A DNA stretch of 64,000 nt, from contig CAYHWL010000001.1 in NCBI GenBank assembly GCA_964359785.1, positions 2,422 through 66,421 of the forward strand, written 5' to 3'. Shown piece by piece: positions 13,191-47,571 of this stretch. Origin of the DNA: an uncultured Methanosarcinales archaeon. Its GTDB lineage: Archaea > Nanobdellota > Nanobdellia > Woesearchaeales > JAGWAF01. The notes under the pieces are model-generated. The model did no database searches, was not told where the DNA came from, and saw only the letters and a program-made list of their open reading frames with translations. A program made the position numbers and the translations under genes. Numbering within the stretch: position 1 is the stretch's first letter; each line of letters starts with the position of its first letter.

Positions 13191-13228
13191 AGATGGAAAA
13201 AATCTGATTTAGCTTAAAAAGATGGACT

Positions 13229-13723
13229 TTAGGCGTCACAGATGTCAAGGGTCACTCTTATCGGGAGATTGCCCCCCAGTGACGCGGGGATTATCTGGCT
13301 CGCTTGGTCTTTTGTCCCTTTGCATTGTTTGCCAAGGGGTGTGTCTATGTCTCTTACGCCAGTTATTGTCAGATAGTACTGCTTGTTTTCTGGTACAAGT
13401 GCGATTTCTAGGACTTGTTTGTTTAGCACTGCGTTGATATATTGACAGCTGTTGTCCCCTCTGATATTCCCGATGTCGCTTGTGCATTTCGCCAATCGCT
13501 CACCTGCGCAGTCTTGCAGCAGTTGTCTAAATGTATTTTTTTGACAGCCTGTGGTGGTGCCAAGCATTGTGTTGAGGAAGCTTGCTGCGAGTCTTTTTTG
13601 TTCATATCCGTGCTGGATATTCTCTGTGGGTTTGTTGATGATAGAAAGCGCGAACAATACCCCCAGGCTCACGAGTATCACTATGATCGCAAGCCCCATT
13701 ATCTCCATCTGTCCCCTACGCAT
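13229..13723 (-). CDS. pilin-like protein (class III signal peptide MRRGQMEIMGLAIIVILVSLGVLFAL)
   Basis: N-terminal KRG|Q followed by a hydrophobic helix. It overlaps its upstream neighbour. Confidence 0.6.
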   Translation of the reverse strand: MRRGQMEIMGLAIIVILVSLGVLFALSIINKPTENIQHGYEQKRLAASFLNTMLGTTTGCQKNTFRQLLQDCAGERLAKCTSDIGNIRGDNSCQYINAVLNKQVLEIALVPENKQYYLTITGVRDIDTPLGKQCKGTKDQASQIIPASLGGNLPIRVTLDICDA

Positions 13724-14213
13724 AGATCCTCACCTTTAGTATTCCAAATGAGTATGTCTTCTTTGCGCTGTCCTGTATCAATACTGGGATGACGCTGGGT
13801 ATCACGGATGTGGCATTCGCCAGTTTGTTGTTGTATAATTGATAGGTATGCCTGTTGGGGTATATCTCTTCGATTGTGACATTCGTATTGCGAAAGACAG
13901 TGTAGTACTGTTCGCGTAAGGTAGCATTATTGTTCAATAACCATGTGAAATTGGCTATCTTGGCTTTATCAAAGCATCTCTCCACCTGTTCCCCTACCCT
14001 GATACAATCCAGTTCTGGGATAGTGCTTATTTTCTGCGAAAGCACTATTGTCTGCAATTGAAGCTCCCGTTCGTAGTCTTTTCCTGCCTGTGCTTTAGAT
14101 ATCAAAAAGTAGAATGAAAGCCCAAATGCGATGAGGAAAAAGAATATGATGAGGACTGCGATAGTCTCAAACATCTGTATCTGCCCTTTTCTTGTGGTTA
14201 TCACGGTTGCCAT
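13716..14213 (-). CDS. pilin-like protein (…TTRKGQIQMFETIAVLIIFFFLIAFGL)
   Basis: Class III-like signal peptide. 165 aa. Confidence 0.6.
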   Translation of the reverse strand: MATVITTRKGQIQMFETIAVLIIFFFLIAFGLSFYFLISKAQAGKDYERELQLQTIVLSQKISTIPELDCIRVGEQVERCFDKAKIANFTWLLNNNATLREQYYTVFRNTNVTIEEIYPNRHTYQLYNNKLANATSVIPSVIPVLIQDSAKKTYSFGILKVRIYA

Positions 14214-14214
14214 C

Positions 14215-15255
14215 TTAGTATATCTCCGGACAGCTTTTCCTGATGTATTCCAGTGACATGGTGGATAATTTGCTTATGTCTCCTGTGATATTGGTGGCGT
14301 CAGTGGCGACGCGCGCATGCCAAGCGAGTGTTTGCAGTGCGTTCACAGGCATGTCATAGTTCATGCCGCATAGATCTTTGTTATTGAATGATTCTGCTCG
14401 CATGGAATAGATATCTGCAAGTGATGCCAGCCGGATATACGCTTCTCTCATGTTGCATGCGTATTGTTTGAAATCTTCGGTGAATATCGCGGCCAGCAGA
14501 TCTCCATCGCTTGCGAATTGTCGGTTTCCTGCCGCGTTCCAGTTGCCGTATTTGTCTTTTGCGAACCAGTATACCGCCTTATGGTCCATATCTATATTGA
14601 GACAGCTGTAATCCTGTCCTTCAAGGGTTGCCATGGTGGGGATATCCTTTGTGCATCCGCCTTGTCCTTGCAACAAGAAGAACACCAGCCTCAATTTTCC
14701 ACCGTCATTGCGTATGTTCTTGGCTCGGTTTACGGCGTCAAGTCCCGTGGCGTTGGCTCTGTTGATGTTGTCTGGGATCATAGATAGTATCCTTCGTATT
14801 TCTGGTGTCAATACTGGTACGGCCATGACGTATTTCACACGTTGATTGGTGGCTATCAAGAAATTCGTCACGCGGAATGGCGCGGCCCAATCGACTGAAT
14901 AGAGCACCATGTTTGGTCCTGTGATTGTTTTGGGCCCAAAGATCAAGGTATCCCCAAACTCCTTTGTTATCGACCCGATGCGGTATCTGCAATCACAGTC
15001 TTCGCAGGAGAAATCGACATCGAGTTCTGGGAATTCGATGAGTTGCGCTGTCCCTTTGGCGGTCTGGGCTCCAGCGGCGATTGCGGAGAGGTCAGATATC
15101 AGGCTCTCTGCGCTTGATTGCTCACTTGCGGTTTTTTGTTTTTGTATGAATCCAAAGAAGGTGATTAGTATTATTCCCCCTGCGATCAGGATAAATACCC
15201 AGTTGATGGGTACTTCTAATTGCCCGGCTCGGTTATTCATTGTTCTTCTTGCCAT
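14215..15255 (-). CDS. pilin-like protein (MARRTMNNRAGQLEVPINWVFILIAGGIILITFF)
   Basis: RAG|Q followed by a hydrophobic helix. 346 aa, Cys-containing extracellular part. Confidence 0.55.
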   Translation of the reverse strand: MARRTMNNRAGQLEVPINWVFILIAGGIILITFFGFIQKQKTASEQSSAESLISDLSAIAAGAQTAKGTAQLIEFPELDVDFSCEDCDCRYRIGSITKEFGDTLIFGPKTITGPNMVLYSVDWAAPFRVTNFLIATNQRVKYVMAVPVLTPEIRRILSMIPDNINRANATGLDAVNRAKNIRNDGGKLRLVFFLLQGQGGCTKDIPTMATLEGQDYSCLNIDMDHKAVYWFAKDKYGNWNAAGNRQFASDGDLLAAIFTEDFKQYACNMREAYIRLASLADIYSMRAESFNNKDLCGMNYDMPVNALQTLAWHARVATDATNITGDISKLSTMSLEYIRKSCPEIY

Positions 15256-15791
15256 TTGCCAACTTGTGTGGTCTTTCCAAGTCCCTCCAGACGCAAAGAG
15301 ACTGTTGATGACTCTATATTGTCTATGCAGAAGAATCCTTGGTTCTCAAGGACTGTTAGTGGCCCCACACGGATCTGTGTCTCGCTTGCGGGTTTGAGGA
15401 ATATGTTCTGGTCGCTTCCGCTTCGTACGGCGTCAGCCATTAGCGCGCTTTGGTTTTCAGCCAGGAAATCTACGCGGGTCTTGTATGTGTTAGGGCCTGT
15501 CTGTATCTGGGAGTCTGTGTAGCTACTTCCCTGGAACATCCTGTTATCGACAAAGCATATGGTCTCAAAACCAGGGCATAGCGTCAAGTCCATCCTGCGC
15601 ACGGTCCCGACAGATGCGGTCACTCGTTCTATCTGATTTTTGAGCGTGTTTTGCGTTTCTATCACGCAGACTTGACTTTTCATCTCTCCAAGAGTGGAGA
15701 TAGACCGATATCCATAGAGGAGGATCATGGCGAATATTATCGCGCCTAATACAAACAGTAACGCTTGTCCTAGTATCTGGGCACGTCTCAT
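15237..15791 (-). CDS. pilin-like protein (MRRAQILGQALLFVLGAIIFAMILLYG)
   Basis: Class III-like N-terminus. Its start overlaps the giant gene's stop (15788..15791). Confidence 0.6.
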   Translation of the reverse strand: MRRAQILGQALLFVLGAIIFAMILLYGYRSISTLGEMKSQVCVIETQNTLKNQIERVTASVGTVRRMDLTLCPGFETICFVDNRMFQGSSYTDSQIQTGPNTYKTRVDFLAENQSALMADAVRSGSDQNIFLKPASETQIRVGPLTVLENQGFFCIDNIESSTVSLRLEGLGKTTQVGKWQEEQ

Positions 15792-18700
15792 TTTCTCCTC
15801 TTCACAGCTGGTTTCTTCCAGGTCTCAAATTGCTTTTGGATCAGGTCTTTGTTCTTTTCCCAATATGCCGCGGTGATCCGGAGTTTCTTGAATAGTTCTT
15901 CAAGGTCTTTCTTGCTTAACTTGCCTTTGCGTGCCAGATCCAATTTTTTCTTTAGCTCTTCACGTTCAGAATCGGTGAATCTCATCAAGGCCATGTTCTC
16001 CAGTGCCTGCATTTCAGGTGATAATGTGCTCTCTTCTCCTTTTGAGATGCCGCTAAAGCTTCTTAATTTACCAAATGCGCTTGTGTCAGGAGCGGCTTCT
16101 TTTTTGCCCAGTTTGCCTACAGCGATGTACTCCTCTTTTCCGGCGCCAGCCGTCCGTGTTGTCACGCTTGATTCGGGCAGGTTCTTTGCCATTCTTCCTG
16201 TTTCGGGTGGTGTTGTCATGCCAGAGCTAAGGTCCAGCTTTGGCATTTGCTCTTTTTTCTTCTCTTTATTCACTACATTTGAAGCGTTTTTAGTCCATAG
16301 GTAATAGAAGATGAATCCTCCTATGATGATTATGCTTGCTGTGAGTATCCATTTTGCCCAGTCGAAAGCTGGTGTGCTTGTGGCGTCGGTTGGATTGCTT
16401 CCCCCTATTATTTCTGCGCCATCGTGGTAGCCGTCTCCGTCTGTGTCAGAATTTGTGGGGTCCACAAATGATCCTGTCCTGTGGTAATAGTTGTATTCAT
16501 CCAGGTTTGTTGCGCCGTCTCCATCCGAGTCTTCCATAGCATCAGCGCTGTTCTTTGGATCAAATCCATATTTGCTCTCCCACCAATCAGGCACGCCATC
16601 TCCATCGGAATCAGGCGGTATGCTATTTGGGTCAGCTGGATTCGAGCCGGCAAGCACTTCTTCGCCATCTAGGTAGCTGTCTCCATCAGTGTCATTCTTG
16701 TGAGGATCCATATCTTGGCCGTTCTGGTTGAAGTGGTTGTATTCTTCCAGGTTTGTGAGACCGTCGCCGTCTGGATCTCCTGTCGCGTCATTAGGGTCGT
16801 TTGGATCAAGGTTATATTTTTTCTCCCACCAGTCAGGCATGCCATCCATATCTGTATCTTTGTCATCGCGTGGATAGCTTTTGCTGTCTGTCGGGTCTGT
16901 CCCGGCGTCGATCTCTGCCTTATCATTGAATCCATCCCCGTCGGTGTCAGCTTTGTTTGGGTCTATCTCTTTTCCGACCGTCTTAAGATACCTATACTCG
17001 GCGAAGTTACTTAGGCCGTCATTGTCATTGTCGAGATTTGCGTCCAAAGGATCGTTTGGATTGAGTCCATGCGCGCGTTCCCAATCATCGGGCATTCCGT
17101 CTCCATCGCTATCGACGTCGCTTGGTCTGCTGTTTGGGTCTATGGGGTTGGTGTTGGCTTTTACTTCAAGGCCATCAGGCGCCCCATCGCCATCGGTGTC
17201 CGCTTTTTTGGGGTTTATGTCTCTATTGTTGTCTTTGAAATAATTGTATTCTTCAAGATTGGTCATTCCATCCCCATCTGAATCCATACTTGCATCGCTG
17301 GCAGAATTAGGATTGAGGCCGTATTTTATCTCCCACCAATCAGGCATGCCATCTGCGTCCGAATCCTTGCCAGAGTCTTGGCAAGTGTGCGTGTCTGCTA
17401 TGGTTATCATGCATGCAAGTCCGCTGCCGCAATCGCTTGTTGTCTTGCATTGCAGGCCGTCTCCGCATTTTGTGGGGCACGCCCCTCCGCAATCAGTGTC
17501 GGTTTCTGTGCCATCTGTCGCATTATTCTCGCATCGGGGTGTCGCTTGACAGATGCCATAGGTGCATCGGCCGCCATTGCAGTCAGAGTCGTAGATACAG
17601 CTTGAGATATTGCGGCATTCGTCAAGGGTGCGGCAAGTGCGGTTTGGACGACTAGTGTCGTTGGATATCACAACAATTGTCCCATTTGACAGCACGATAG
17701 TGTTGTTATATGTCACAACAATTGTACCATTTGGCAGCACGGTAACAACAGGACACGCGCTGCAGCTTCCACCGCAATCTATTGCGGTTTCATCGCCGTT
17801 TCTTGCGCCATCTGTGCAGGAGACTGTCCTGCATATTCCGCCTAAGCATGAGGAGTTTAGACAATCCCAATTTACCGAACATCGCAAACCGTCTTTGCAC
17901 CCTAGGCAATTTCCGCCGCAATCAGTGGCTGTCTCTCTGCCGTCTGTTCGGTTATTGGAACACGTGAGTGGGCGTGAGGCGTTGTCTATTCTGACACCTG
18001 TTGACCGCATGATTGAGGAGTTTCTGCCAGCTCTATCTACTGCCTGCATCTCGAAGTAATAGCTCTCTGTGTTTCTAAGAGTTAGTCCTGTGACGACATT
18101 CGCGTGTTCAGGATTATTCTCACTCACTGGACCTCGTATGGCTGATCCGTTCTGGGCTCTTAGAGTATATGTATATCGGACTATTCCAGTATCCGGATCG
18201 CTTCCGTTATACCATAACGGCAGTCTGTCAAAGTCCGCGCTCACTTGAGAGTCTTCGAATTGTGTGCTGTCATTCACGATTAACATTGTGGGATCGCGCA
18301 AGTCGATCCAAAAATCAGTATTTACCTCTCCAGTCTCCGGTACTCCGCTTATCACGGTATTGCCTAGTGTCCTGCAGTTTGTCCGGGTGTTATGTCGTCC
18401 GCCGGAATTGACATCGAAATTGGTTGTGAGGTTGTGGACTTGGCTTCCGGCGCTCTCTGTGAGACGCACCACAGTGTCTATGGCAAATGAGCAGGTAGCG
18501 TCTTTATTAGATCCTATAGAGAATAATGCGGTGGGTATCCCAAATATCTTTCCGCTGGGAGTGTAATCAGTCAAGATGAACTGTCTGCCGGGGTCTACCC
18601 TAAATAGGATTGTGGCGCCAACTGATCCAAGACCTGATGCGCTCTTGCACGCGACCCGATAAGTATAGCTTCCTACATTTCCCACTGTCAGGTCTGTGAT

Positions 18701-21700
18701 GTGACTGTTGAGTGCCATGAAATTATATCCCGAAAATGTGTTTTCCATTTGGTCATAATTAGCGGTTGTATTGGAATATTTGCAGAATGTCTCTATATCC
18801 GTGCTGACTTTTAATGTGGTTGTGAGTGGTGATTGGATTATTGGGTTTGGGTCTGCGACCGCGCTGATTATCACAGGTGTCTGATCTTGCACTATTAGTG
18901 TGAAGTCCTGCCTTATGTCACGATTTTGTGCATCGACGCATCTGACAAGGAAATCAAACCGCCTGTTCCGATTCGATGGAAGAGGCGCGATCTCATTGAA
19001 ATTCGTTATCACATGCTGTGATGATATTGCGTCATTATCCATCTTTCTCCAATTCGCGAAATCAGGATATATGAATCCACCAGGATCGAATAAGAATCTG
19101 CATTTTGTGAGCGTGAGTGTCTCCACTCCAACATCAAAAGTGAAATTTGGCGCGGCTCCATATGGAGGCAGATAAAGCCTTATCGGACTTGCATGTGCGG
19201 TGACCATGAAGTCAGCTCGGCTTGAGATCTGGTTCAAGGCGTCATCTTCAGCTTGTAGAAGCAAAGTGTTTGGCCCATCATCAAGTGTCAGCGATAATCC
19301 GTATAGGTTGCCTTGGGTATTTTGGCGGCTTAGATTAGTTGTGATTTCCACAGGTTCTATCCTGCTGGAGAATTGGTTTATCGTAGTATGTACCAATGTG
19401 ACGTTCTTGAGTGTGACTGGTTCGGAGAATCTTAAGACTAGCATCCCTGCGCTAGTGTCTATATTCGCGCCATTCAAGGTTATCGCGTTTATGGTGGCGT
19501 TCACAGTTGGTGGGGTGAGGTCAACTATCAGTATAGTCTGGTCAGGTTGATCCATGGGTATGTTGGTATTGCCAATGGCTCGCATCCTGAATGTATATGT
19601 GCCCTCAAGCAGGTCTTCTATAGGGGAGAAACTGAAGTTATATTTTGGCACCATCACGGTTTGATCTGCTGCGATCACTCTTGTGGGCGTCCCAAATATT
19701 CTTTCTGTGACAGTTGATTCGACATTCATTCCGATTGTGATAATAGGCCGTCTATCCGATGTTCGGTAGGTGTCATTTGCTATTCTTTTTGCGTGAGAGA
19801 CATTCTTGCCTATAACAAGCGGCCCATAGCATCCCTTGCATGCGCGGAAAGTTAGCTCATTGATTATCTCAAGATTATGTGAAGGATCCTCTCCGAAGAA
19901 TCGAAGTGTGGTGTCTCCATCAAATAATGGTTGTGTCACCAATGAGCCGTCCACAAGTCCGGCCTCGCTAAAGGTCAATCTATCGGCAGTGGTTGTTTTA
20001 GAGGGGATGCATGGCGTGGCTCCAGGGGCATAGGTGCAGTATTTTGTGGGCGCGCTAAGTCCAGATATGATGTTCGCTGAATACAGCGCATTCACGCGGT
20101 CAAGTCTTGTGATTGAGACATAGTCTATTCTGGATGGGTTTGTGGTGCTCATTGGCACCATGCGCGTTTCGGGGGGGAAATAATCCATTTCACAGCTTCG
20201 TAGTTTTGCGTCTCCTGCTCCGTATGGGCAGTCGCGGAAGTCATTGTTTTGTTCTGCGCCATCCGCGTTTTTGGCGCATTTCTTGATGTCGTTCCACTGG
20301 CATACGCCTATATTGCACTGGTCCGTGCTGCGTATGAGTATCCTATTCGTATTTCGGTCTATTGTGATTCCTGGACCTGCGCAGTCTTCCCTTGTCTTGT
20401 AATCCAGACAGGTTGCGTTGATGCATGAGAAGCTGGATCCTGATCCTTGAGAATTGTAGAAGCAGGGGAATTGCGAGGTTGACAATGCGTCGCTTTTCGC
20501 TTTTGTGCAGGCATCAAAGATTTCATTGTAGGATCTATGAGGAGGTCGGTTATTGTCCGCTCCAAGCGTGCCCTTGGCATCGCAATAATAGCAATTGGTT
20601 TGGCTCGTGTCTATGCATACCCCTATTCCGATGGCTGGGAAGATGTCTTTCCATTGACAGTTTTTCACTCTGCAATTATCTTTTTCACATGCGTTTCTTG
20701 TCTTATAATCATAGCAAGCATTGGTAGGTTCGCATTGGAAGCAGTAATCGATCAAAGAAGCGCTTCTATCATAGAAGCAGTATCGGTAGTCCTTTGAATT
20801 TCCTTCGCATATATCGCTGGTGATGGATAACCCAAAATGAGGCGTGACATTGTGGCAAGTATCAAATGGCACACAGGCCGGCCCGGCAGATTGTATCGCG
20901 CAATAGCTGTTGGTTTGGCTGCAATCAAGATTGCTGACTAATTGATTCAATGGATTACAGCTATACGCTTTTTTGAATCGTCCAAAAAAAGAGTCTACTA
21001 CCCTCTGTTGGAAGTTCGAGGAGAATGCTGATTTGTCGACATTCGAGTATCCGTATGAAGTGAGATAAGTGGAGAACTGTTGATAGAACACTGGGCCATT
21101 GATGCAGAAGAGGGCATCGGTGGTTTTTCCTTGGCATTCGAGATCCCCCAGGTATGAGCTTGCGAATGTGGGATTTGATTCCTTGCCACCTTTGAATAGC
21201 ACTTTGACTTGGTAAGTGAAAGATTTGTTCCATATGAGGTCAGGACGGTTATCCAGAAATCCCGTCTCGTTTGCCGCGAGTATTGTGCTTGTCGTGAACA
21301 TTGTGGTGGCGCAATTGTCTCCCTGGCATCTGCTGACATTGAATCCGTTTATTTGTTCTGTGCAGTTTGATTTCCAGACTATCTGGAGGGATCGTTCTCC
21401 TCTGATAGGATGTATCCCCAAGTCGTATACTGGGGGCGTATAATCAGGATTTCCGCATTGATATGAGATGTTCACGAATGTGATGTTGACTTTAGTCTGG
21501 TTGCACACCACATAACAGATGTCCTTTAAGTCTATGGCTTGAGTTATTCCGAATATAGATGGGCTTGTTGGAGTGAAATTCTTTGAGGTATCGCATTCGC
21601 TCACTTGCAACATCGTCCCCTTTTGTGCTGTGCCATTCGAGTTACAGCAGCATACATTTGAACCGCTTTGAGGGCTCGCGCTTGGCAAGGTCACAATATA

Positions 21701-21757
21701 TAGTATAGCGCACGCTACAAAGAGCAACATGAATCCTCTTTTTTGGCGTTTTTCCAT
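15788..21757 (-). CDS. giant (1989 aa) Cys-rich surface protein with four thrombospondin-type-3 Ca-binding super-repeats, a C-terminal TM anchor and a Lys/Glu-rich cytoplasmic tail
   Basis: Sec-type signal peptide (MEKRQKRGFMLLFVACAILYIVTLPSA) and many N-x-S/T sequons. Three Cys modules of the form TDGxETxxDCGGxCxxC are present. There are four repeats of about 84 aa of the form DSDGDGMPDWWExKYGLNPN…DTDGDG. A TM segment (ILTASIIIIGGFIFYYLW) is followed by a KE-rich tail. Confidence 0.8.
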   Translation of the reverse strand: MEKRQKRGFMLLFVACAILYIVTLPSASPQSGSNVCCCNSNGTAQKGTMLQVSECDTSKNFTPTSPSIFGITQAIDLKDICYVVCNQTKVNITFVNISYQCGNPDYTPPVYDLGIHPIRGERSLQIVWKSNCTEQINGFNVSRCQGDNCATTMFTTSTILAANETGFLDNRPDLIWNKSFTYQVKVLFKGGKESNPTFASSYLGDLECQGKTTDALFCINGPVFYQQFSTYLTSYGYSNVDKSAFSSNFQQRVVDSFFGRFKKAYSCNPLNQLVSNLDCSQTNSYCAIQSAGPACVPFDTCHNVTPHFGLSITSDICEGNSKDYRYCFYDRSASLIDYCFQCEPTNACYDYKTRNACEKDNCRVKNCQWKDIFPAIGIGVCIDTSQTNCYYCDAKGTLGADNNRPPHRSYNEIFDACTKAKSDALSTSQFPCFYNSQGSGSSFSCINATCLDYKTREDCAGPGITIDRNTNRILIRSTDQCNIGVCQWNDIKKCAKNADGAEQNNDFRDCPYGAGDAKLRSCEMDYFPPETRMVPMSTTNPSRIDYVSITRLDRVNALYSANIISGLSAPTKYCTYAPGATPCIPSKTTTADRLTFSEAGLVDGSLVTQPLFDGDTTLRFFGEDPSHNLEIINELTFRACKGCYGPLVIGKNVSHAKRIANDTYRTSDRRPIITIGMNVESTVTERIFGTPTRVIAADQTVMVPKYNFSFSPIEDLLEGTYTFRMRAIGNTNIPMDQPDQTILIVDLTPPTVNATINAITLNGANIDTSAGMLVLRFSEPVTLKNVTLVHTTINQFSSRIEPVEITTNLSRQNTQGNLYGLSLTLDDGPNTLLLQAEDDALNQISSRADFMVTAHASPIRLYLPPYGAAPNFTFDVGVETLTLTKCRFLFDPGGFIYPDFANWRKMDNDAISSQHVITNFNEIAPLPSNRNRRFDFLVRCVDAQNRDIRQDFTLIVQDQTPVIISAVADPNPIIQSPLTTTLKVSTDIETFCKYSNTTANYDQMENTFSGYNFMALNSHITDLTVGNVGSYTYRVACKSASGLGSVGATILFRVDPGRQFILTDYTPSGKIFGIPTALFSIGSNKDATCSFAIDTVVRLTESAGSQVHNLTTNFDVNSGGRHNTRTNCRTLGNTVISGVPETGEVNTDFWIDLRDPTMLIVNDSTQFEDSQVSADFDRLPLWYNGSDPDTGIVRYTYTLRAQNGSAIRGPVSENNPEHANVVTGLTLRNTESYYFEMQAVDRAGRNSSIMRSTGVRIDNASRPLTCSNNRTDGRETATDCGGNCLGCKDGLRCSVNWDCLNSSCLGGICRTVSCTDGARNGDETAIDCGGSCSACPVVTVLPNGTIVVTYNNTIVLSNGTIVVISNDTSRPNRTCRTLDECRNISSCIYDSDCNGGRCTYGICQATPRCENNATDGTETDTDCGGACPTKCGDGLQCKTTSDCGSGLACMITIADTHTCQDSGKDSDADGMPDWWEIKYGLNPNSASDASMDSDGDGMTNLEEYNYFKDNNRDINPKKADTDGDGAPDGLEVKANTNPIDPNSRPSDVDSDGDGMPDDWERAHGLNPNDPLDANLDNDNDGLSNFAEYRYLKTVGKEIDPNKADTDGDGFNDKAEIDAGTDPTDSKSYPRDDKDTDMDGMPDWWEKKYNLDPNDPNDATGDPDGDGLTNLEEYNHFNQNGQDMDPHKNDTDGDSYLDGEEVLAGSNPADPNSIPPDSDGDGVPDWWESKYGFDPKNSADAMEDSDGDGATNLDEYNYYHRTGSFVDPTNSDTDGDGYHDGAEIIGGSNPTDATSTPAFDWAKWILTASIIIIGGFIFYYLWTKNASNVVNKEKKKEQMPKLDLSSGMTTPPETGRMAKNLPESSVTTRTAGAGKEEYIAVGKLGKKEAAPDTSAFGKLRSFSGISKGEESTLSPEMQALENMALMRFTDSEREELKKKLDLARKGKLSKKDLEELFKKLRITAAYWEKNKDLIQKQFETWKKPAVKRRK
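16200..17370 (-). repeat. four tandem coding super-repeats of about 250 nt (TSP3-like DxDxDG modules) inside the giant gene
   Basis: Recurring DNA motifs such as ccaatcaggcatgccatc (encoding DGMPDWW) appear at about 16590, 16830, 17080 and 17330 on the plus strand, a period of about 250 nt. Confidence 0.6.
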
Positions 21758-21761
21758 GGAT

Positions 21762-23156
21762 TTAACCTAATTTCTTGACGATTGCTGGGAATATAAGCGT
21801 TTGGCTGTCCGCCAATTCATCGTCGGTGACATTGACGCTAAAGACAAATCTCATAGATGGTTCCCTCGCCACAAACTCCACCATCAAGAAGGGGATGGGT
21901 TTTTCAGGGTTTGCAGGGTCCCTTGGTTCTGGGGCGACGCTTGGTTCAGGCAGCTCCATGGTGTACTCGAATCGCAATGGATTATCATCAGGATCTATCG
22001 CGTTTAAGGTGATGCATAATTGTTGGGGAGAGCATAATGGAGCATTCTTGATGCAAAACACTTGATTGACGATCCCGATTGTAGGCTCTATCTTGTTCCC
22101 CTCCTTATCTTCTGTTGCACAGACCACGAAATTATTGACTGCGTCACGGCGTGCGGAATCATTTAGGAGGAACAGCGCAGGCCTCCTGTTTTTTATCGCG
22201 AATCGGAATTCAAATGGACGCTCCAATATGTTGCTATATGGGTCTCTGACGATGTAGAGATAATCCAATCGGTTCACATTTGGCTTTCTGTCATAGGTCA
22301 GGTTTTCTACTTTGATCTCGCTGATATTTATCGAGAGATTGCTCACGTCTTGATCTAACAACTGGCTGGTGAATTCTATTATTTGCCCAAGCCTGACTGG
22401 ATAGTCTACCTCAAAATTTTCCAGTTTTGACTCGGCTTGTGTGACTGTATTGGATAGGTTGATTGGCCAATTGAGTTGGACCGTTACGTCGGCTAGATTG
22501 ACTGTGACTGTTGTGTTTGGGCCTGATTTGCGTATTCTTATATTGCCCTTGGATAGGTCCTGCCAGCGTACGCAAGTCTGCATCTTGTTTGTGATATATA
22601 CTTCCAACTGCTCCTGGATGCTTCTGGAGAATGTCTTGGTGAGATGGGTGAGTCTATTGTATCCTGCGAATGCCAATGTGTTGTATCCCGGGCTGCATGG
22701 TTGTGTTATGCATTGGGTCTCCGGAAAGCCCGCCCAGGGATATTCCGGAGGGCTGGATTTATAGAATCCAAATAGATCCCCCATAGGTCCTACGACTGCA
22801 TATGGCACGTCCTTGTCTTCATAGCGCAGGTATTCTTGCCCAAAACATGGAGGATAATCAGATACTCCAAAGCACACCTGATTAAATGATTTGGTGGGGC
22901 CGCCCTGTGTGTCGTATATCACCCCTCCTTGGTCCCCTAGTAATGCCAGTCCCTTGCGCGCCGCAAGATCCAGGCAATATTTCACTTCCTGTTTGATAGG
23001 AAGGATCTCTTCCGCTCCAAGCTGCGTCTTTGCTATGGTTTGGCTTGTGGTTTGCGCGATGAAGTTATTATAGATATAATAGAATGAGCTAAACAGAAAG
23101 ATCAGTACTATGCATATGATTAGGAATACTGTGACTTGTCCGGTCTTCTTTCGCAT
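21762..23156 (-). CDS. hypothetical secreted protein with a class III-like signal (MRKKTGQVTVFLIICIVLIFLF); start at internal ATG
   Basis: The internal Met (residue 36 of the tracked ORF) gives a KKTG|Q plus hydrophobic-helix N-terminus. The stop lies 4 nt upstream of the giant gene's start. Confidence 0.55.
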   Translation of the reverse strand: MRKKTGQVTVFLIICIVLIFLFSSFYYIYNNFIAQTTSQTIAKTQLGAEEILPIKQEVKYCLDLAARKGLALLGDQGGVIYDTQGGPTKSFNQVCFGVSDYPPCFGQEYLRYEDKDVPYAVVGPMGDLFGFYKSSPPEYPWAGFPETQCITQPCSPGYNTLAFAGYNRLTHLTKTFSRSIQEQLEVYITNKMQTCVRWQDLSKGNIRIRKSGPNTTVTVNLADVTVQLNWPINLSNTVTQAESKLENFEVDYPVRLGQIIEFTSQLLDQDVSNLSINISEIKVENLTYDRKPNVNRLDYLYIVRDPYSNILERPFEFRFAIKNRRPALFLLNDSARRDAVNNFVVCATEDKEGNKIEPTIGIVNQVFCIKNAPLCSPQQLCITLNAIDPDDNPLRFEYTMELPEPSVAPEPRDPANPEKPIPFLMVEFVAREPSMRFVFSVNVTDDELADSQTLIFPAIVKKLG

Positions 23157-23273
23157 TTTGTCCTCTATTTTCCCGAGCCCTTCCTGACGGCAAACATTTC
23201 GGCAAGGGTGATTCCCTCGTATGTCACTATATATAGTTTTGGATAGGCAAGATTGCATCAAAGAATAAGTGTC

Positions 23274-24083
23274 TTACTCGGTTCGGTTCATCTGTCCTAT
23301 CGCTGATTTACATATGCGTCTTGCTTCGTCATTTGGGATCATGTCACAGTAATTCACGTCTGTGAGATTTATCGCTAATTGTTGCGATGATTGCAGCTTG
23401 CATTCTTCTACCATGAATTCATATGGCAGTGACTGGCATGTCAAGGAATTCTTCGTGATTATAGCTGTTTGGATGGCTGATTTCACTTTCTCTCTCAATT
23501 GTTCCTGCGCTCCCGGATCCACTCTTGCAAGTATATCCAGCACGCAACGCGATTGCAGTGCAGGATCGTTCTTTGGACAGGCCGTTGGATCGACGTTCAT
23601 TCTTGCTTTGATCAATTGCATGAATGTCTCGCAATTTTGTCTGTTGTCTCCAAGGTTCGCACACAATGATGGATTGTCTGTCAAGGCGCCAAGCCCTATG
23701 GTGGCTTTCAATTTGGTGGATTCTTCATTCACGGCCTTAGCCAAGGCCTCTTTGAGTTTTGTCATGCATTCTTCTCTGGCATTTTTCTCGTCCATTCCAA
23801 GGCATTGGAATGGATCAAGGGCAATTATCGCTTGTTCTGTGATTATTTGCGCAAGGGAAGGGGCGGCTTGTCTTTGATATAGATAATATGTGGATCCAGC
23901 CAGCACAAGACATACCAATAAGAGCGCGTAAGCCGCGATCCTGTATCCTCTGACGTGGTCTGCGAGGAGGCCTACGATATCCGAGTACCCTTCATTGTGG
24001 AGTTCTCTTATGATCTCATCGCTAGAAAGTTTCTGTTTTCTTTTCGTGGAGATGAATTTCTCGATTGGAACTTGTTTGACCAT
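23274..24083 (-). CDS. single-pass membrane protein (about 50-aa cytoplasmic N-terminus, TM helix, Cys-rich extracellular domain)
   Basis: TM segment YALLLVCLVLAGSTYYLY. The C-terminal region has about 10 Cys residues. Confidence 0.55.
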   Translation of the reverse strand: MVKQVPIEKFISTKRKQKLSSDEIIRELHNEGYSDIVGLLADHVRGYRIAAYALLLVCLVLAGSTYYLYQRQAAPSLAQIITEQAIIALDPFQCLGMDEKNAREECMTKLKEALAKAVNEESTKLKATIGLGALTDNPSLCANLGDNRQNCETFMQLIKARMNVDPTACPKNDPALQSRCVLDILARVDPGAQEQLREKVKSAIQTAIITKNSLTCQSLPYEFMVEECKLQSSQQLAINLTDVNYCDMIPNDEARRICKSAIGQMNRTE

Positions 24084-26342: not shown

Positions 26343-27056
26343 TCAGGAGCATTCCAGGATGTTCCTATAGCTGTCATTGTTGCTGGGGGTGTCTTCCGCG
26401 CAAAGATATGAATGGGAGGGTTTGTCGCCCACCCCTGTCTTGGTCATGTTCATCAAAGTGAACGTCTTATATGTATTCACGCTGCCTAACCCTATGCCGC
26501 ACAGATAAAAATCATTTCCATCGCTAAGGATTTGCGCTTGGGCGCATTGGAGATTGAATATGTCTGCTTTGTTCGAGATTAATTTTGCCCATTTCCAGGT
26601 TTCGGGGCCTATCGAGGGATTCACGCATGCTTCGCTGCCTATGCGCATCCCGCAGTTGTCCGTCGGATGAGCGCCGCAGCATTTGGAATTAGCAGTGGAC
26701 CAGTTCACGGTCTTGTTCGCGAAGCATACGGGAAGTGTGAGGTAATTGTTTCCTCTGCAATATGTGGAGGTATCCCACGAGACGGCATGCGTGTTTAGTT
26801 CCGCGTAATTCGCCTGATCATTTCCGCCGACGGTGAATTTGAGTTTGTACTGTCCCTCTTGAGAGCATACTTTGGCCACATCTTGTATCGGAAGCTTACA
26901 TTCTCCATTTCCTTCGCATGTGTTTGTCTCCATCGCCACAGAGGCATCCGGTGCTAGAAGCTGCAGTTTGCTTGATTGCGCGGACACAGCTATCGAGAAG
27001 ATTATACAGACAGCTAAATAGAACACGATAACCAGGTTTCTCCTGTCGATATGCAT
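26343..27056 (-). CDS. N-terminal 237-aa part (with signal peptide) of the same secreted protein; ends at an in-frame TGA
   Basis: N-terminus MHIDRRNLVIVFYLAVCIIFSIAVSAQS (signal peptide). A TATA box (ctttatatata) lies about 25 nt upstream of the ATG at 27054..27056. The stop TGA at 26343..26345 is followed in frame by DDPAYDTQDG…. Confidence 0.6.
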   Translation of the reverse strand: MHIDRRNLVIVFYLAVCIIFSIAVSAQSSKLQLLAPDASVAMETNTCEGNGECKLPIQDVAKVCSQEGQYKLKFTVGGNDQANYAELNTHAVSWDTSTYCRGNNYLTLPVCFANKTVNWSTANSKCCGAHPTDNCGMRIGSEACVNPSIGPETWKWAKLISNKADIFNLQCAQAQILSDGNDFYLCGIGLGSVNTYKTFTLMNMTKTGVGDKPSHSYLCAEDTPSNNDSYRNILECS

Positions 27057-27119: not shown

Positions 27120-27281
27120 TTGTCAAAAGTTCGCACCCACCACCGTGATCGCACTCCGGCGCTCAACACAGGTGGCATGCTCGGTCTGAGGACCTCGGGG
27201 TGCTCACGACGCGAACTTTTGACTACCGAATGGAACCGGTTGCGAACCACCGGTGAGCACACCGGTGGAATGACTGTATTC
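27120..27281 (+). repeat. copy 1 of a structured repeat element of about 160 nt (candidate small RNA or promoter-associated element)
   Basis: About 90% identical to 47361..47516. It contains a 13-bp long-range inverted repeat (gtcaaaagttcgc … gcgaacttttgac) and a perfect 9-bp hairpin (ccaccggtg agca caccggtgg). It ends about 15 nt upstream of a TATA box. Confidence 0.7.
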
Positions 27282-27328
27282 GATTGTCTTCGCAATCCTT
27301 ATATCCACAAGATGATTTCGTGGAAAGT

Positions 27329-28006
27329 ATGAGATTCGCGCTCCGTTTTGATGCAGTCCAGTCTGTCAATAAGGACTTTGCGGCATTGATCGATCTATTG
27401 ATCGAGAAGAAGATTGCGGCCACTTACGCTGTGATCCCTTCTTTGATCGATCACCAATCCACTAGTTTACTCTCTGAAAAGGCGCGGAGCCATCCCAGAT
27501 TGGTGAGTATCGTCCCTTATGGTTGGTCTGGTTCAAATTATGGATCGGGCGCAAGGCCCGGCGAATTCGGGGAGTTCCGTTCAAGGGCGCAGCAATGGGA
27601 GGATATCAAGAGGTCTATCGAAAGGATGGACCGGCTTTTCATGCATCGCTGGTCTAGGGTCTTTGTTCTGCCATTCAACAATTATGATCATATCACCCAG
27701 GAGATTCTCAAAAGCAATATGTTTATGGCCTTTAGCGCAAGGTGCTCCCCTTATCAAAAACATCTCTTGCCCGATGTGGGAGCGAGCATCGTTCTTGGTA
27801 AGCCGACGCTGGCCAAGTCTATCGTGTCTGAATGCCAGTTCTTGCTTAATGCCAGGGAAGGCATCGTGATCGCGATTAGGCCAGAGGCGCTAGCGGGGGT
27901 TTATGTCGAGGAGATAAAGAAGGCCGCGCTGGTCTTGGTGGCCAGGAATGCCCGGCCTGTGATCTTATCAGAGCTAGCAGGTGTTTCTCTAGAAAAGGTT
28001 ATATAA
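27329..28006 (+). CDS. hypothetical protein, possibly polysaccharide-deacetylase-like (DUF2334-like)
   Basis: Start moved to ATG 27329 (MRFALRFDAVQSV…). A TATA box (ccttatatcc) lies about 25 nt upstream. The RFDAV motif weakly resembles NodB/DUF2334 motif 1. Function is low confidence. Confidence 0.45.
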   Translation: MRFALRFDAVQSVNKDFAALIDLLIEKKIAATYAVIPSLIDHQSTSLLSEKARSHPRLVSIVPYGWSGSNYGSGARPGEFGEFRSRAQQWEDIKRSIERMDRLFMHRWSRVFVLPFNNYDHITQEILKSNMFMAFSARCSPYQKHLLPDVGASIVLGKPTLAKSIVSECQFLLNAREGIVIAIRPEALAGVYVEEIKKAALVLVARNARPVILSELAGVSLEKVI

Positions 28007-28028
28007 TCAGCTGCGCATTCTATATACT

Positions 28029-28349
28029 ATGGAAGGTGTAGAGGTCTTCTCCGATGGATTATGCCACACTATTGAGATAGACTCTTCTTTTTTCGATAAG
28101 GAGGTGGTGATGACCACGGCGTATTCTTTTATGGATCGTTTCTATGTGAAGATTAGCGGGGATCCATTGGGGAGCATCTTGGTGTCGTTGCTGCCCAAAG
28201 GCCAGGATATTGACTCGGGATCCATTGAAGGGGAGTTTGGCAATGCCCTTCTTGCGTATGCACAGCATCAAATGATGGCAAAAGGTTCAAAACAGGTGAG
28301 AGAGATGATTGTCTACAGCGCGCTGATGGCAGGTGAACGGCATGGTTGA
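28029..28349 (+). CDS. hypothetical 106-aa protein (candidate precursor or accessory protein for the downstream radical SAM enzyme)
   Basis: Small ORF overlapping the next ORF by 17 nt. No recognisable domain. Confidence 0.35.
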   Translation: MEGVEVFSDGLCHTIEIDSSFFDKEVVMTTAYSFMDRFYVKISGDPLGSILVSLLPKGQDIDSGSIEGEFGNALLAYAQHQMMAKGSKQVREMIVYSALMAGERHG

Positions 28350-28518
28350 TTTTTTACTGCTCAACTCTGATTTCTATGATCTTGGGAAGATCGAGGATTT
28401 CATACATGCAAAAGATGAAGGGCCAAGATTTTACAGGCAGGATGGCATCTTGCGGGTTGAAGGTGAAAGGCAAGAGCTCTTGATGATCGCAAATGCCGCG
28501 TTGCATCTTTCGAGGTGA
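28333..28518 (+). CDS. hypothetical 61-aa protein (candidate precursor peptide or chaperone)
   Basis: Small ORF overlapping both neighbours, consistent with translational coupling. Confidence 0.3.
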   Translation: MNGMVDFLLLNSDFYDLGKIEDFIHAKDEGPRFYRQDGILRVEGERQELLMIANAALHLSR

Positions 28519-29893
28519 GATTATGCGCAGCAACATCTTAAGATGGCGCAAGGTAGGGGGAAGGATCCTTCTTGTTTCCGACTCTGGCGCATGGATATTT
28601 CTTGATCCTCTAGAGTTTGAGGGGTTCATGGCAGATGAGATCTCACATGGACTGCATTCCAAGCTAAAGGCCAACCGTATCATTCTTGATCAAGATAATG
28701 AGTCAGCTGAGATTGCGGCGTACAAAGCGAAAAAAGATTTCGTGCGGCAAGGCACTTCTTTGCATATCATGATCCCCACTCTAAGATGCAATCAAAGATG
28801 CGTCTATTGCCACGCATCTTCAAGACCTATGGATGCTAAAGGAGTGGACATGGATAAAGACACGGCAAATAAGGCGATCGAGTTCATATTGCAGTCTCCG
28901 GCGGGTTCTATCGAGATTGAATTTCAGGGTGGGGAGCCTCTTGTGGATTTTGGGATGGTCAAGCACATCTGCAAGACCGCTAAGGTTGCGGCGTTGGAGA
29001 CTGGTAAAATGATTAGGTTCTCGATGACCAGCAACCTTCTGTTGATGGACCAGGAGAAGCTGGATTTCCTGATTGATCATGATGTGGCCGTCTGCACTAG
29101 TCTTGACGGCCCAAGAGATGTGCATGATAAGAGCAGAGGCCATTATGACGAGCTTATTTCTAAGATCCATTTTGTCAATTCAGTCTATCAACAAAAAGGG
29201 TTGCCAAATAGGCTTGGGGCTCTTTTCACACTCACAAGGACCGCGTTGTCATGCCCTAAAGACATCATCGATGAATATATCCGGCTTGGTATGGATCAGA
29301 TCCATATCAGATGGCTCAACCCTCTTGGATCTGCGCAAGACGCGTTTGACGAAGTTGGCTGCACACCGCAAGAATATATAGAGTTCTGGAAGGCTTCCAT
29401 GGAGTATATTTTGGAGAAGAACCGGACTGGCACTCGGTTCATCGAGCGGCAGGCGCGTATCATGCTCCACAAGATACTAAGATCCACCGATCCCAATTAC
29501 CTTGAGATGCGCTCGCCTTGCGGCGCGGTCACAGGCCAGCTTGCCTACGGACCGGATGGGAAGATATATACTTGTGATGAAGGCAGGATGATCGGTGAAG
29601 GTCTCTTTTGTGTTGGCGATGCGAAGATGGATTCTTACAAGGAGGTCCTTGAGAGCCCCACTTCACTCTCTATGATCAATGCATCTATAACTGATTCCCT
29701 TTTCTGTGACACTTGCGCTTATAAGCCATGGTGTGGGGTATGTCCTGTCATGAATTATGCCGAACAAGGCTCCTTGATTGGTGACATTGTAAATACTCCA
29801 AGGCACAAGATCTTCCTCGCTCAATTCGATTGGATATTTATGCGCCTCCAGATAGAAGAGGATGCGCAGATATTAAAGTCATGGGTCAAATAG
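28493..29893 (+). CDS. radical SAM / SPASM-domain enzyme (peptide- or protein-modifying maturase family)
   Basis: CNQRCVYCHA (Cx3Cx2C) is preceded by an N-terminal extension of about 95 aa. The C-terminus has a 7-Cys SPASM-like motif (…SPCG…YTCDE…LFCVG…FCDTCAYKPWCGVCP). Confidence 0.85.
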   Translation: MPRCIFRGEIMRSNILRWRKVGGRILLVSDSGAWIFLDPLEFEGFMADEISHGLHSKLKANRIILDQDNESAEIAAYKAKKDFVRQGTSLHIMIPTLRCNQRCVYCHASSRPMDAKGVDMDKDTANKAIEFILQSPAGSIEIEFQGGEPLVDFGMVKHICKTAKVAALETGKMIRFSMTSNLLLMDQEKLDFLIDHDVAVCTSLDGPRDVHDKSRGHYDELISKIHFVNSVYQQKGLPNRLGALFTLTRTALSCPKDIIDEYIRLGMDQIHIRWLNPLGSAQDAFDEVGCTPQEYIEFWKASMEYILEKNRTGTRFIERQARIMLHKILRSTDPNYLEMRSPCGAVTGQLAYGPDGKIYTCDEGRMIGEGLFCVGDAKMDSYKEVLESPTSLSMINASITDSLFCDTCAYKPWCGVCPVMNYAEQGSLIGDIVNTPRHKIFLAQFDWIFMRLQIEEDAQILKSWVK

Positions 29894-39691: not shown

Positions 39692-39821
39692 GAGATGGTG
39701 TCCTTAAAAATCTTTAGAAAAAAAGTAACCATTCAGTGTTCTGATACTGTTCGTCGATAATTGATTTATATTCTGTAGTGGCGATATCTTTATATCCTAG
39801 TGTAGTTACATTGTAACTACA

Positions 39822-39959
39822 ATGAAATCGTTGATCGAAATGAAAATGAATGGATTTGAGGCCATTGAGAAAATCGCTCAAGCTGGCGGAAATAGTGCTC
39901 GGGTCTATGTGCCTAAGCATTGGCAAGGGAAAAAAGTCAAAGTGGTGTTGATAGAATGA
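39822..39959 (+). CDS. 45-aa transposon-associated small protein (DUF2080-like, AbrB/SpoVT-like hairpin)
   Basis: Translation MKSLIEMKMNGFEAIEKIAQAGGNSARVYVPKHWQGKKVKVVLIE. Its stop overlaps the transposase ATG (ATGA). Confidence 0.5.
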   Translation: MKSLIEMKMNGFEAIEKIAQAGGNSARVYVPKHWQGKKVKVVLIE

Positions 39960-41311
39960 ACACAACTGAAGAAGGACTTCGCAAAAGGATTCGCGAGTTG
40001 GAGCGTGAGCTCCAACAAACAAAGGAGGAGAAGCAGCGTATTGAGGATGCGAAAAAGAAAATTGAGAAAGAGTTTGAAGAGTTCCGAGCAAAATATGCAT
40101 GTACTGTAGACAATCTGAAGATTGCATTGAAGATTAAGGGCGATGTTTCAAATTCTGCAGAACCTGGTGCAAGAAAAGGGCATGTTGGTCATGGGCGTAA
40201 AGCGCCGGAGCATGTTGACAAGAATGAGGAGATTCGACTTGATAATTGTCCTTATTGTAAGACTCACCTTCGAGGAAAAACTATCAGCACGCGTCATCGT
40301 ATTGTCACGACGATAAAAATCATCAATCCTGCACAAGTCATCCGTTATTTGCTTCATCGCAAGTGGTGTCCGACTTGTGAGAAACTGGTAGAACCCGAAG
40401 TGCCAGGTGTGCTTCCAAATGCGCGATTCAGCCTAAATATCATGCTTTTAGTCATGTATTTGCATCTGGCACTGCGTGTGCCTGGCGCGAAGGTGCGCGA
40501 ATATTTTCAGACTGTGCACAATGTCAATATCAGCACGGGTGAGATCCCGCACATGCTCACGCAACTCGCACGAGAATACGGAGACCATTACGCCAGTTTA
40601 GAAAAACTCGTGCGAGCTGCACGAGTCAAACACACTGATAGTACAAGTTGGCGCATAAGCGGTAAAAACTATGCCGCATGGGTATTTGTCATTCAAGGAG
40701 TCGTGCTCTACAAAATCAGTAAAAGTACAAGTCACAAACTACCACTCAAAGTGCTTGGCAGAATCGGCAAAAACATCACACTTGTCGTAGATAGACACTC
40801 TGCATTCCGCACCCTCGCACAAAAAGCAGGATATCTACTCCAATTATGCTGGTCACACATACTCCAAGACAGCAAGGAACTAGCCAAAAATTTCGGCGCC
40901 GAAGGACGCTACGTCCACCGCCACCTCAAAGAAATCTACGCACAAGCCAAATCCCTAAACCACCAAGCCACACAAGAACAAGTAGACGCACTCAAATGCG
41001 AAATACTCCAACTCACCTACAGACATTACAAAAGCCACGCCATACGCCGATTCGTCGACAATCTCGCATACCGCGACCTAGACAACCTATTCCGATTCAC
41101 AACAGACCCCACAATCGACCCGACCAACAACATAAGCGAAAGAGAACTACGACACTTAGTCATGATACGACGCATCAGCCACGGCAGCAGAAGCCGCCGC
41201 GGCGCCAATGCCATGACCCAACTTCTAAGCATCATTCAAACACTACGACTAAACCAACAAAACCCCCTCGAAGGACTACAAAACATACTCAACCCCCTAT
41301 CAATCAACTGA
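39956..41311 (+). CDS. IS66-family transposase (TnpC-like)
   Basis: N-terminal coiled coil (ELERELQQTKEEKQRIEDAKKKIEKEFEE). Zinc finger CPYCKTH…CPTCEKL. DDE core. IS66-type C-terminus NNISERELRHLVMIRRISHGSRSRRGANAMTQLLSIIQT. Confidence 0.85.
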   Translation: MNTTEEGLRKRIRELERELQQTKEEKQRIEDAKKKIEKEFEEFRAKYACTVDNLKIALKIKGDVSNSAEPGARKGHVGHGRKAPEHVDKNEEIRLDNCPYCKTHLRGKTISTRHRIVTTIKIINPAQVIRYLLHRKWCPTCEKLVEPEVPGVLPNARFSLNIMLLVMYLHLALRVPGAKVREYFQTVHNVNISTGEIPHMLTQLAREYGDHYASLEKLVRAARVKHTDSTSWRISGKNYAAWVFVIQGVVLYKISKSTSHKLPLKVLGRIGKNITLVVDRHSAFRTLAQKAGYLLQLCWSHILQDSKELAKNFGAEGRYVHRHLKEIYAQAKSLNHQATQEQVDALKCEILQLTYRHYKSHAIRRFVDNLAYRDLDNLFRFTTDPTIDPTNNISERELRHLVMIRRISHGSRSRRGANAMTQLLSIIQTLRLNQQNPLEGLQNILNPLSIN

Positions 41312-41344
41312 ACGATTACGAAAAAAAGATGATAAAAGAAAAAA

Positions 41345-42151: not shown

Positions 42152-42374
42152 GTTTTGTTCCCCCCTCTTTTCCGTCGTGACGGTCCGGTATTATTAATAC
42201 GTTTTGTTTTCGCGGTGTTTTTTTACCTTTCTGGAGTTAAACACTGCCAATCCCACTAAAGAGTAATATCAAAATGCACCTATATAAGCGTTGTCATGGA
42301 AAATATTTTATCGTCGATATCTTTCCTGTTTCATTGTAGCTGAGTAACATATTATTGTTTTCCTGGTTGTTTTT

Positions 42375-47360: not shown

Positions 47361-47516
47361 TTGTCAAAAGTTCGCGCCACCGATGATCACGCTCCAGCGC
47401 TCAACACAGGTGGCATGCTCCTGAGGACCTCAGGGTGCTTACTAAGCGAACTTTTGACTACCGAATGGAACCGGTTGCGAACCACCGGTGAGCACACTGG
47501 TGGAATGACTGTATTC
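47361..47516 (+). repeat. copy 2 of the structured repeat element of about 160 nt
   Basis: About 90% identical to 27120..27281. The 13-bp long-range stem is retained. A C-to-T change in the 9-bp hairpin converts a G-C pair to a G-U wobble. It ends about 25 nt upstream of a TATA box (atatttatatacta). Confidence 0.7.
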
Positions 47517-47571
47517 ACCACAGCCTGATGCATGGCAATATTTATATACTATATCGTCGGGGTTTAAGACC

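Follow-up and report, generated by a model that had tools for sequence, protein, structure and literature searches.

Element X, a small hairpin-bearing repeat in intergenic spacers of a groundwater DPANN archaeon, is probably a non-autonomous mobile element

Insertion sequences of the IS200/IS605 family are the most widespread in archaea (PMC13343696), and gene-less elements derived from this family, the palindrome-associated transposable elements (PATEs), were defined in Haloquadratum walsbyi (PMC3119063) and have also been seen in Geobacillus (PMC10055086). Palindrome-associated elements have no terminal repeats, possess palindromes near their ends, generate no target duplication, and are frequent targets of other small repeats; among these is SMR-A of Haloquadratum, a repeat of ~110 bp with prominent inverted repeats that makes no target duplication and inserts into palindrome-associated elements, its means of mobilization being unknown (PMC3119063). 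The omega RNAs of the nucleases TnpB and IscB are encoded at the right end of IS200/IS605 elements (PMC10055086). The present study concerns a repeat of ~155 nt, referred to as element X, two copies of which lie in a 64-kb stretch of an uncultured archaeal genome (contig CAYHWL010000001.1; the whole stretch analyzed is called the window). X is a dispersed insertion with fixed ends that occurs at unrelated loci in two species and is present or absent on identical haplotypes, and we consider it probable that it represents a family of non-autonomous, palindrome-associated mobile DNA of the IS200/IS605-like kind that has become dispersed among the short spacers between genes in one groundwater DPANN lineage.

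Replication factor C and other housekeeping genes assign the host to the DPANN archaea (Woesearchaeota/Nanoarchaeota type), and the genome represented by the window is compact, with many proteins giving no Pfam match. L005, a sibling assembly recovered from the Hainich aquifer, matches the window at 99.9% identity and contains an identical copy B, while a related groundwater genome from the same aquifer, GCA_964597775.1, has a replication factor C protein that is 78% identical to that of the window and coding DNA that is 65-75% identical.

The sequence-only reading of this DNA had reported a direct repeat at 27120-27281 and 47361-47516, and this pair is real: the two copies, A and B, are 89.6% identical over 163 alignment columns in the same orientation (BLAST E=3e-57), lie 20.2 kb apart, and differ by a single base across the 3' 76 nt, and a 41-mer of X occurs exactly twice in the window versus 0 occurrences expected from shuffles. 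Both copies are intergenic, as had been stated, with A lying between the divergent genes 26343-27056(-) and 27329-28006(+) and B between the genes 46364-47311(+) and 47572-48504(+). Under the boundary model provided by an empty allele (described below), X runs from TTGTCAAAAG to GGAATGACTG at 27120..27276 in copy A and at 47361..47511 in copy B, no strand being assigned to these or to the internal features given below, and the copies score 180 and 161 bits, respectively, with a covariance model. The originally reported repeat extended to 27281 because the motif that flanks X is also conserved; this motif, a candidate target or adjacent motif, reads TATT, or AATA on the minus strand to which it is assigned, at 27277..27280 beside copy A and at 47512..47515 beside copy B. 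The full copies of X described here are 151-158 nt long with a G+C content of 52-59%, against 46% in the genome, and indels of 1, 3, and 4 nt between them would shift any reading frame, so that X is non-coding, as well as too short for a transposase; a protein-coding X was thereby ruled out.

The search for additional copies that the earlier reading had recommended was productive, in that a two-anchor sequence pattern located four full copies on four contigs of GCA_964597775.1 (L012, L011, L008, and L009). Along their full length, these copies share 78-84% identity with those of the window, a range above that of the coding DNA of the two genomes, and 84-93% identity with one another; the copy adjoining the acetate kinase gene aligns from the first base to within one base of the last. 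All relative copies begin with TTGTCAAAAGTTCGC and finish with GAATGAGTG, followed by CATT, whereas the window copies finish with GAATGACTG, followed by TATT. The sample thus consists of six independent full copies (A, B, L012, L011, L008, and L009), or seven related sequences including a strain variant, from which the covariance model was built; full copies score 116-199 bits, and a scan of the window found no full copy beyond A and B. The 13-bp long-range stem proposed previously (GTCAAAAGTTCGC/GCGAACTTTTGAC, hereafter P1) holds, with 76 nt (copy A) or 70 nt (copy B) between its arms. The covariance model also detected a diverged short relative, X', at L011:5499-5609 in GCA_964597775.1, the arms of which (GTCAAGAACCACC/GGTGGTTCTTGAC) pair without mismatch over 13 bp in a stem that departs from that of X at six positions, each altered on both sides, and which keeps the loop motifs TGATCGC, CGCTCAACAC, and GGTGA-ATG. 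X'-type arms (GTCAAGAACCACC/GGTGGTTCTTGA(C/G)) are also present in a third genome, at L006:2499-2560. X' sits between convergent genes, just downstream of a HerA-like gene whose upstream side carries X, and the end of the gene just upstream of X' (L011:5431-5482) gives a weak C/D-box-like match (SNORD47 model, 25.6 bits, E 0.045); the L006 relative lies in a divergent promoter region and is followed by three more hairpins. An exact 22-mer of the conserved junction had no match in genome, metagenome, and viral collections, the two-anchor pattern found nothing in metagenomes and viral contigs, and phage and plasmid collections showed no similarity to X. A match of the pattern in Desulfovibrio was dismissed as chance in G+C-rich coding DNA, and 0 of the 80 loci returned by a looser viral scan scored with the covariance model.

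The evidence for mobility comes from sites at which X is missing. At the site of copy B, the relative GCA_964597775.1 has a 22-nt gap between the orthologous genes, with the same TATA box and 5' leader kept and no X, and a second relative has a 120-nt gap without a covariance-model match. For copy A, L013 has an orthologous divergent spacer of 99 nt that contains two TATA boxes and no X, compared with 273 nt in the window. Upstream of the HerA-like gene in GCA_964597775.1, X is present in three assemblies and absent from a fourth contig of the same bin (L102), which lacks exactly 155 nt in comparison with L100 and L099 and is otherwise 100% identical over 55 + 4026 nt, with no target duplication. 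The empty allele reads ...AAGTG/CATTTAAT... (the slash marks the junction), and the filled allele reads ...AAGTG(TTGTC...GAGTG)CATTTAAT...; in more distant relatives, the spacer at this site is 17-109 nt. Contigs 6 and 61 of the relative open at the same 55-mer ending at the edge of X, as repeats cause de Bruijn assemblies to do.

X also participates in nesting with a second small element of 100 nt, termed Y, which in L009 (1465-1564) lies inside X, directly after the internal P1 arm. A copy 99/100 identical to it occurs in L008 (4165-4202 and 4361-4422), where it is split by an oppositely oriented X with 0 bases gained or lost. The layout of Y mirrors that of X: its terminal arm, TCTCAAATGGGT, is paired with ACCTATTTGAGA in the interior, the inner hairpin is CCGATGC-TCT-GCATCGG, and the tail forms a hairpin between A6 and T6. 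The first bases of Y (TTCTCAAA) resemble those of X (TTGTCAAA). Y fits the description of SMR-A well, while X itself is longer than SMR-A and has no terminal inverted repeat; X is also inserted into Y, so that the targeting goes both ways.

The conclusion that X is not a canonical MITE (miniature inverted-repeat transposable element) was correct, with neither a terminal inverted repeat nor a target duplication found: the ends, TTGTCAAAAG... and ...GAATGAGTG, are not complementary, and the partner of the terminal 13-mer is internal, located 53-58 nt from the opposite end of X. Directly after X, (C/T)ATT is present in 6/6 independent copies, corresponding to AAT(G/A) on the minus strand (5' flanks GAATA, GAATA, CAATG, AAATG, AAATG, and AAATG), and the opposite flank is variable. 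The two empty-site comparisons agree on the length of X and on the lack of duplication. In the frame given by the Y pair, X is GTC...GCA within TTT/TTT, an exact fit in which the flank motif would be a T-run target, and in the frame given by L102, it is TTGTC...GTG, followed by CATT. We prefer the L102 frame because the haplotypes compared are identical, because the L006 arm is preceded by GT rather than TT, and because the linker of Y is variable, the sole other difference between the Y copies being 7 nt from the junction. A crossover-core model with a shared TT was rejected, as it predicts empty sites 2 nt shorter than both of those observed. The one-sided AAT(G/A) flank in the L102 frame has the layout of the IS200/IS605 type. 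Palindromes lie near both ends in the window copies, and the end-proximal one is also present in L009; their registers differ in L008, and they are degenerate in L012 and L011.

The fixed ends, orthologous empty sites, polymorphism, nesting, and one-sided flank together fit a palindrome-associated (IS200/IS605-like) non-autonomous transposon. X would then travel in single-stranded form, the active strand being the minus strand, and a Y1 (HUH) transposase supplied in trans would recognize its hairpins, cut beside AAT(G/A), and insert or excise the element precisely by "peel and paste"; the joined ends on the minus strand would read ...TTTTGACAA/CACTCATT..., and the conserved stems and compensatory changes described below may reflect the requirements of mobilization. 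The closest described kind appears to be the haloarchaeal PATE, with which X shares a length too short for a protein, the lack of terminal inverted repeats and target duplication, precise presence/absence alleles, heterogeneous copies, and nesting with small repeats; a short motif flanking only one end and, in the window copies, mutually similar palindromes close to either end (CCACC-GTG/CACAGGTGG and CCACCGGTG/CACCGGTGG) would be further points of agreement. It differs from PATEs in having no known IS200/IS605 transposon that shares its ends in the window or at the loci examined, in a flank motif of only 4 nt, in a long-range stem of 13 bp that places one arm at the terminus of X and encloses a conserved 70-76-nt region, in a boundary that varies by 2 nt between the two empty-site comparisons, and in its DPANN host. 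A limited literature search found no paper describing such elements in DPANN archaea.

Several points weigh against this assignment. No IS200/IS605 transposase gene (TnpA/TnpB) was present in the window or at any examined locus of the relatives, and no solo X end was found beside a transposase at any locus examined. A 13-bp stem with an arm at the very end of X is atypical of the described ends of IS200/IS605 elements, the strongly conserved loop sequences are equally expected of a functional RNA, and the number of independent full copies is only six. The frames of the two empty-site comparisons differ by 2 nt, and the L102 frame would require two adjacent substitutions between the Y copies. 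In addition, the empty allele of L102 could have arisen by slippage deletion between 4-nt AGTG repeats, which provide microhomology at the junction, rather than being a virgin site or the product of excision by a transposase. The strand asymmetry described below rests on ~8-9 independent events, and the copies in the relative share ancestry.

Bacterial repeats provide a further point of comparison. REPINs are doublets of repetitive extragenic palindromic (REP) sequences that form hairpins and are moved by Y1 transposases termed RAYTs, which are bacterial, and ERIC and Correia elements are bacterial intergenic hairpin repeats, the latter with terminal repeats and TA duplications. The P1 domain of X resembles a REPIN in consisting of two short inverted sequences ~70 nt apart that form a long hairpin, and, as with REPINs, ERIC, and Correia elements, which are often passively transcribed, the copies are dispersed in intergenic DNA and lie near promoters or terminators. 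X differs from REPINs by an extra tail of 50-55 nt with its own hairpins and by its low copy number.

The relationship of X to promoters, which the sequence-only reading had emphasized, may be secondary. The TATA boxes had been placed 15-25 nt past the repeats, and they lie 18 and 25 nt past the reported repeat ends; that at 47541 was correctly positioned, and that at 27297 was 2 nt off, the boxes being TTATATCC at 27299..27306(+) for gene 27329-28006 and TTTATATAC at 47541..47549(+) for gene 47572-48504, both host sequence outside X. For four of the six copies (A, B, L011, and L009), a TATA box follows the end of X by 16-28 nt, and X has the same orientation as the gene; in L008, X and the TATA box are separated by half of Y, and in L012, X lies between convergent genes. 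The genes downstream of X are unrelated in function (a deacetylase-like protein, a lipoprotein, a HerA-like ATPase, and unknowns), and the orthologous-site spacers in the relatives examined are 17-120 nt long. By default, we regard the closeness to TATA boxes as best explained as a by-product of an A/T-rich target motif and very short spacers, since an A/T-rich target combined with selection against hits in a gene or in its BRE (transcription factor B recognition element) and TATA box would leave surviving insertions just upstream of the promoter.

The folding of X was examined in all seven related sequences, and its constraints bear on both the transposon and the RNA-based readings. P1, with a terminal arm at 27122..27134 (GTCAAAAGTTCGC) and an internal arm at 27211..27223 (GCGAACTTTTGAC) in copy A, and at 47363..47375 and 47446..47458 in copy B, has 96.7% of its cells paired; the terminal arm is invariant in all full copies, the only change in the stem is a T>C substitution in the internal arm of three related copies, which gives A.C on the plus strand, and X' compensates fully at six positions. 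Inside P1, the loop motif GCGCTCAACAC (27159..27169) is invariant in all full copies and occurs as CGCTCAACAC in X', and the hairpin P3 (GGTC-TGAG-GACC, 27183..27194) has 96.0% of its cells paired, with 3/4 pairs changed on both sides across copies. The tail (27234..27268) holds three CACCGGTG-type motifs at 27234-27243, 27247-27255, and 27260-27268, and can fold either as the 9-bp hairpin recognized in the sequence-only reading or as a competing stem, P4L (AACCGGUUGC with GCACACCGGU). That hairpin (ccaccggtg-agca-caccggtgg, 27247-27268) is present, and the single C>T change in copy B yields a G-U pair, as reported, but it forms because the tail contains two direct copies of the palindrome CACCGGTG; with the addition of five further sequences (four loci and one strain variant), 85.7% of its cells are paired, 0 pairs are compensatory, and 4/9 pairs are broken in some copies. 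P4L has 89.9% of its cells paired with 2 compensatory pairs and forms a perfect 10-bp stem in L008. A 5' hairpin-like pairing, CCACC...GGTGG, was discarded because it is not kept in the L012 and L011 copies. The window copies have plus-strand folding z-scores of -3.7 and -4.8, the minus strand folds just as well (z -4.05), and folding is lost in the L012-type copies (z -0.7). Across P1, P3, and P4L, 12/15 non-Watson-Crick cells are A.C on the plus strand, equivalent to G.U on the minus strand, and 2/15 are G.U when read on the plus strand; in 5/7 sequences, folding is more stable for the minus strand. The compensatory changes in helices other than the 9-bp hairpin indicate that the folding of X is under selection, as a transposon end that depends on hairpins would require, and the mismatch pattern, together with the stability of the minus strand, suggests that this strand is the better candidate for the folded one.

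These strand properties are also those that would be expected if X, while mobile, carried in its P1 domain a scaffold for an omega-RNA-like guide RNA, transcribed on the minus strand toward the ...TTTTGACAA end and the flank and used in trans by a TnpB-type nuclease, with transcription possibly initiated by reverse firing of a host TATA box nearby. Omega RNAs are often found on palindrome-associated elements (PMC10055086), the P1 domain with its covarying stem and conserved loops is common to X, X', and the L006 element, both the folding and the wobble bias favor the minus strand, and, on that strand, X starts 16-28 nt from a TATA box at 4/6 loci, near the point at which a divergent start would fall. 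A structured RNA of ~100-150 nt that ends at a transposon boundary, can ride on palindrome-associated elements, and is used in trans is a fair description of an omega RNA. However, X showed no sequence or covariance-model similarity to omega RNAs, no TnpB gene was present in the window or at the loci examined, no Rfam match was obtained (Rfam's coverage of such transposon-associated RNAs not being established), the flank motif is just 4 nt, and the reverse firing of TATA boxes is purely inferred. We thus regard this proposal as unlikely, and as a lead rather than a finding. A comparably low probability is assigned to the broader proposal that X, X', and Y make up a possibly undescribed class of DPANN hairpin elements without target duplication, in which the end-proximal stem would be a minus-strand guide-RNA scaffold driven by host promoters and used by a TnpB-type protein in trans.

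The sequence-only reading had interpreted the structure differently, as that expected of a structured RNA rather than a neutral repeat, which corresponds to a stand-alone non-coding RNA gene or a cis-regulatory RNA expressed from the plus strand. The part of this claim concerning structure stands: the folding z-scores are strong, compensatory changes occur in P3 and P4L, the stems of X and X' covary around conserved loop motifs, and copies of X are more alike across genomes than coding DNA. The step to an RNA gene fails. The earlier reading had named, as an observation that would refute it, additional copies breaking the stems without compensation, and this is what the 9-bp hairpin shows, while P3, P4L, and P1 show compensation; in a set of seven related sequences, the compensatory pattern is equally expected for transposon hairpins. 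The proposed Rfam/Infernal check identified no family at the gathering score, with matches only at chance level at E up to 10 for the window and relative copies, and a tRNA search of the copies found none. The upstream flanks share no promoter, and X contains no A/T-rich box. Because X precedes the TATA box of the following gene, it is not part of that mRNA, and 2/6 loci have no co-oriented upstream gene for read-through. An RNA gene is also difficult to reconcile with absence at orthologous spacers, polymorphism within a population, unrelated neighbors, the interruption of one copy by Y, the unfolded L012-type copies, and wobble pairs that favor the opposite strand. Taken together, these results make an RNA gene very improbable.

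An explanation at the DNA level is that X is a portable regulatory module, with up to five CAC-NN-GTG sites including the palindrome CACCGGTG, serving as the target of a transcription factor and spread by transposition, thereby rewiring genes. In addition to the position and co-orientation of 4/6 copies relative to TATA boxes, 4/5 sites in L008 share one non-palindromic 8-mer in either orientation (CACAGGTG twice, CACCTGTG, and AACCTGTG), as expected of double-strand recognition. Nevertheless, the genes downstream have unrelated functions, convergent genes surround one copy, the L012 and L011 copies have degenerate sites, the population tolerates an allele without X before the HerA-like gene, and no candidate factor was identified; we rate the chance of this explanation as very low, similar to that of an RNA gene.

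The only transposase in the window is that of an IS66-family gene at 39920-41311(+), within 39700-41340, between the PheRS genes and TrmB; since PheRS and TrmB are adjacent in the relative GCA_964597775.1, this gene looks like an insertion, and its candidate ends are gtaacc at 39726 and gattac at ~41318. IS66 elements make 8-bp target duplications. The IS66 gene lies between copies A and B, which are direct repeats 20.2 kb apart, but it is extremely unlikely that X is a canonical MITE moved by a DDE transposase such as that of IS66, or that A and B flank a 20-kb island, either as attachment sites or as a segmental duplication, because X has no terminal inverted repeat or target duplication, the candidate IS66 ends are unlike those of X, the interval holds housekeeping genes (including RNase P p30, ThiI, PheRS, and Pelota) and is partly syntenic in relatives, the copies differ by 10% and indels, and the other copies of X are solitary. 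Three identities considered during this work were also set aside. A C/D-box small RNA (AUGAUCA ... CUGA, by eye) is contradicted by the loss of CUGA in the copies of the relative. Integron attC sites conserve structure rather than sequence, and, by eye, X does not match the core-site consensus and its copies are solitary. The template and variable repeats of a diversity-generating retroelement would differ only at adenines of one copy, have no indels, and include a copy within a gene; A and B, by contrast, are distinguished mainly by G/A and C/T transitions, which run in both directions, and by two 3-nt indels, and both are intergenic.

Other features of the window and its relatives were noted. 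The region downstream of copy A (27329-29893) encodes a weak polysaccharide-deacetylase-like protein, a 106-aa protein, an ortholog of which carries PF27806 (HxsD), and a radical SAM enzyme, an apparent small cluster that is likewise conserved in L013. A third relative has, before its ortholog of the gene that follows copy A, a different, hairpin-rich segment of ~200 nt (L015:790-1020 and L016:150-370), with hairpins such as ACAAAGTCGT-CGCT-ACGACTTTGT and AAAAATGC-TCG-GCATTTTT, which ends just before the TATA box; the DNA farther upstream differs between L015 and L016. Between TrmB and Pelota, the relative GCA_964597775.1 carries genes for phosphotransacetylase and acetate kinase (L001:511-2570) where the window has only a 224-nt spacer (42151-42375). 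A giant ORF of 1989 aa at 15788-21757(-) contains internal repeat families (66-nt, 44-nt, and tandem 45-nt units), and a Pfam scan of the ORFs around it (10362-15791 and 21762-24083; the giant ORF was not scanned) gave no match. No tRNA gene was detected across the 64-kb window. An Orc1/Cdc6 gene at 61504-62715 lies behind a 335-nt spacer, and a replication origin may, therefore, be nearby. In L099 (7544-7930), two or three repeats of the 3' end of a tRNA-Met gene, together with a 55-nt unit, follow that gene, beside an N run; the tail of this unit is complementary to the T-arm, and the repeats could be integration scars or an effect of assembly or masking.

The X family has practical implications as a source of false structured-RNA and small-ORF calls, and it also causes contig breaks in assemblies; a public 56-aa gene call overlapping X at L099:3371-3541 is almost certainly a false ORF caused by the repeat. 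If the guide-RNA proposal were true, X would be an RNA-guided selfish element of ~155 nt that borrows host promoters in an unexplored lineage. DPANN genomes are among the smallest and most compact, and active small elements of the kind that X probably represents, with insertion and loss in one aquifer population, would reshape their promoter-proximal spacers, which suggests that the streamlined genomes of episymbionts still carry mobile DNA.

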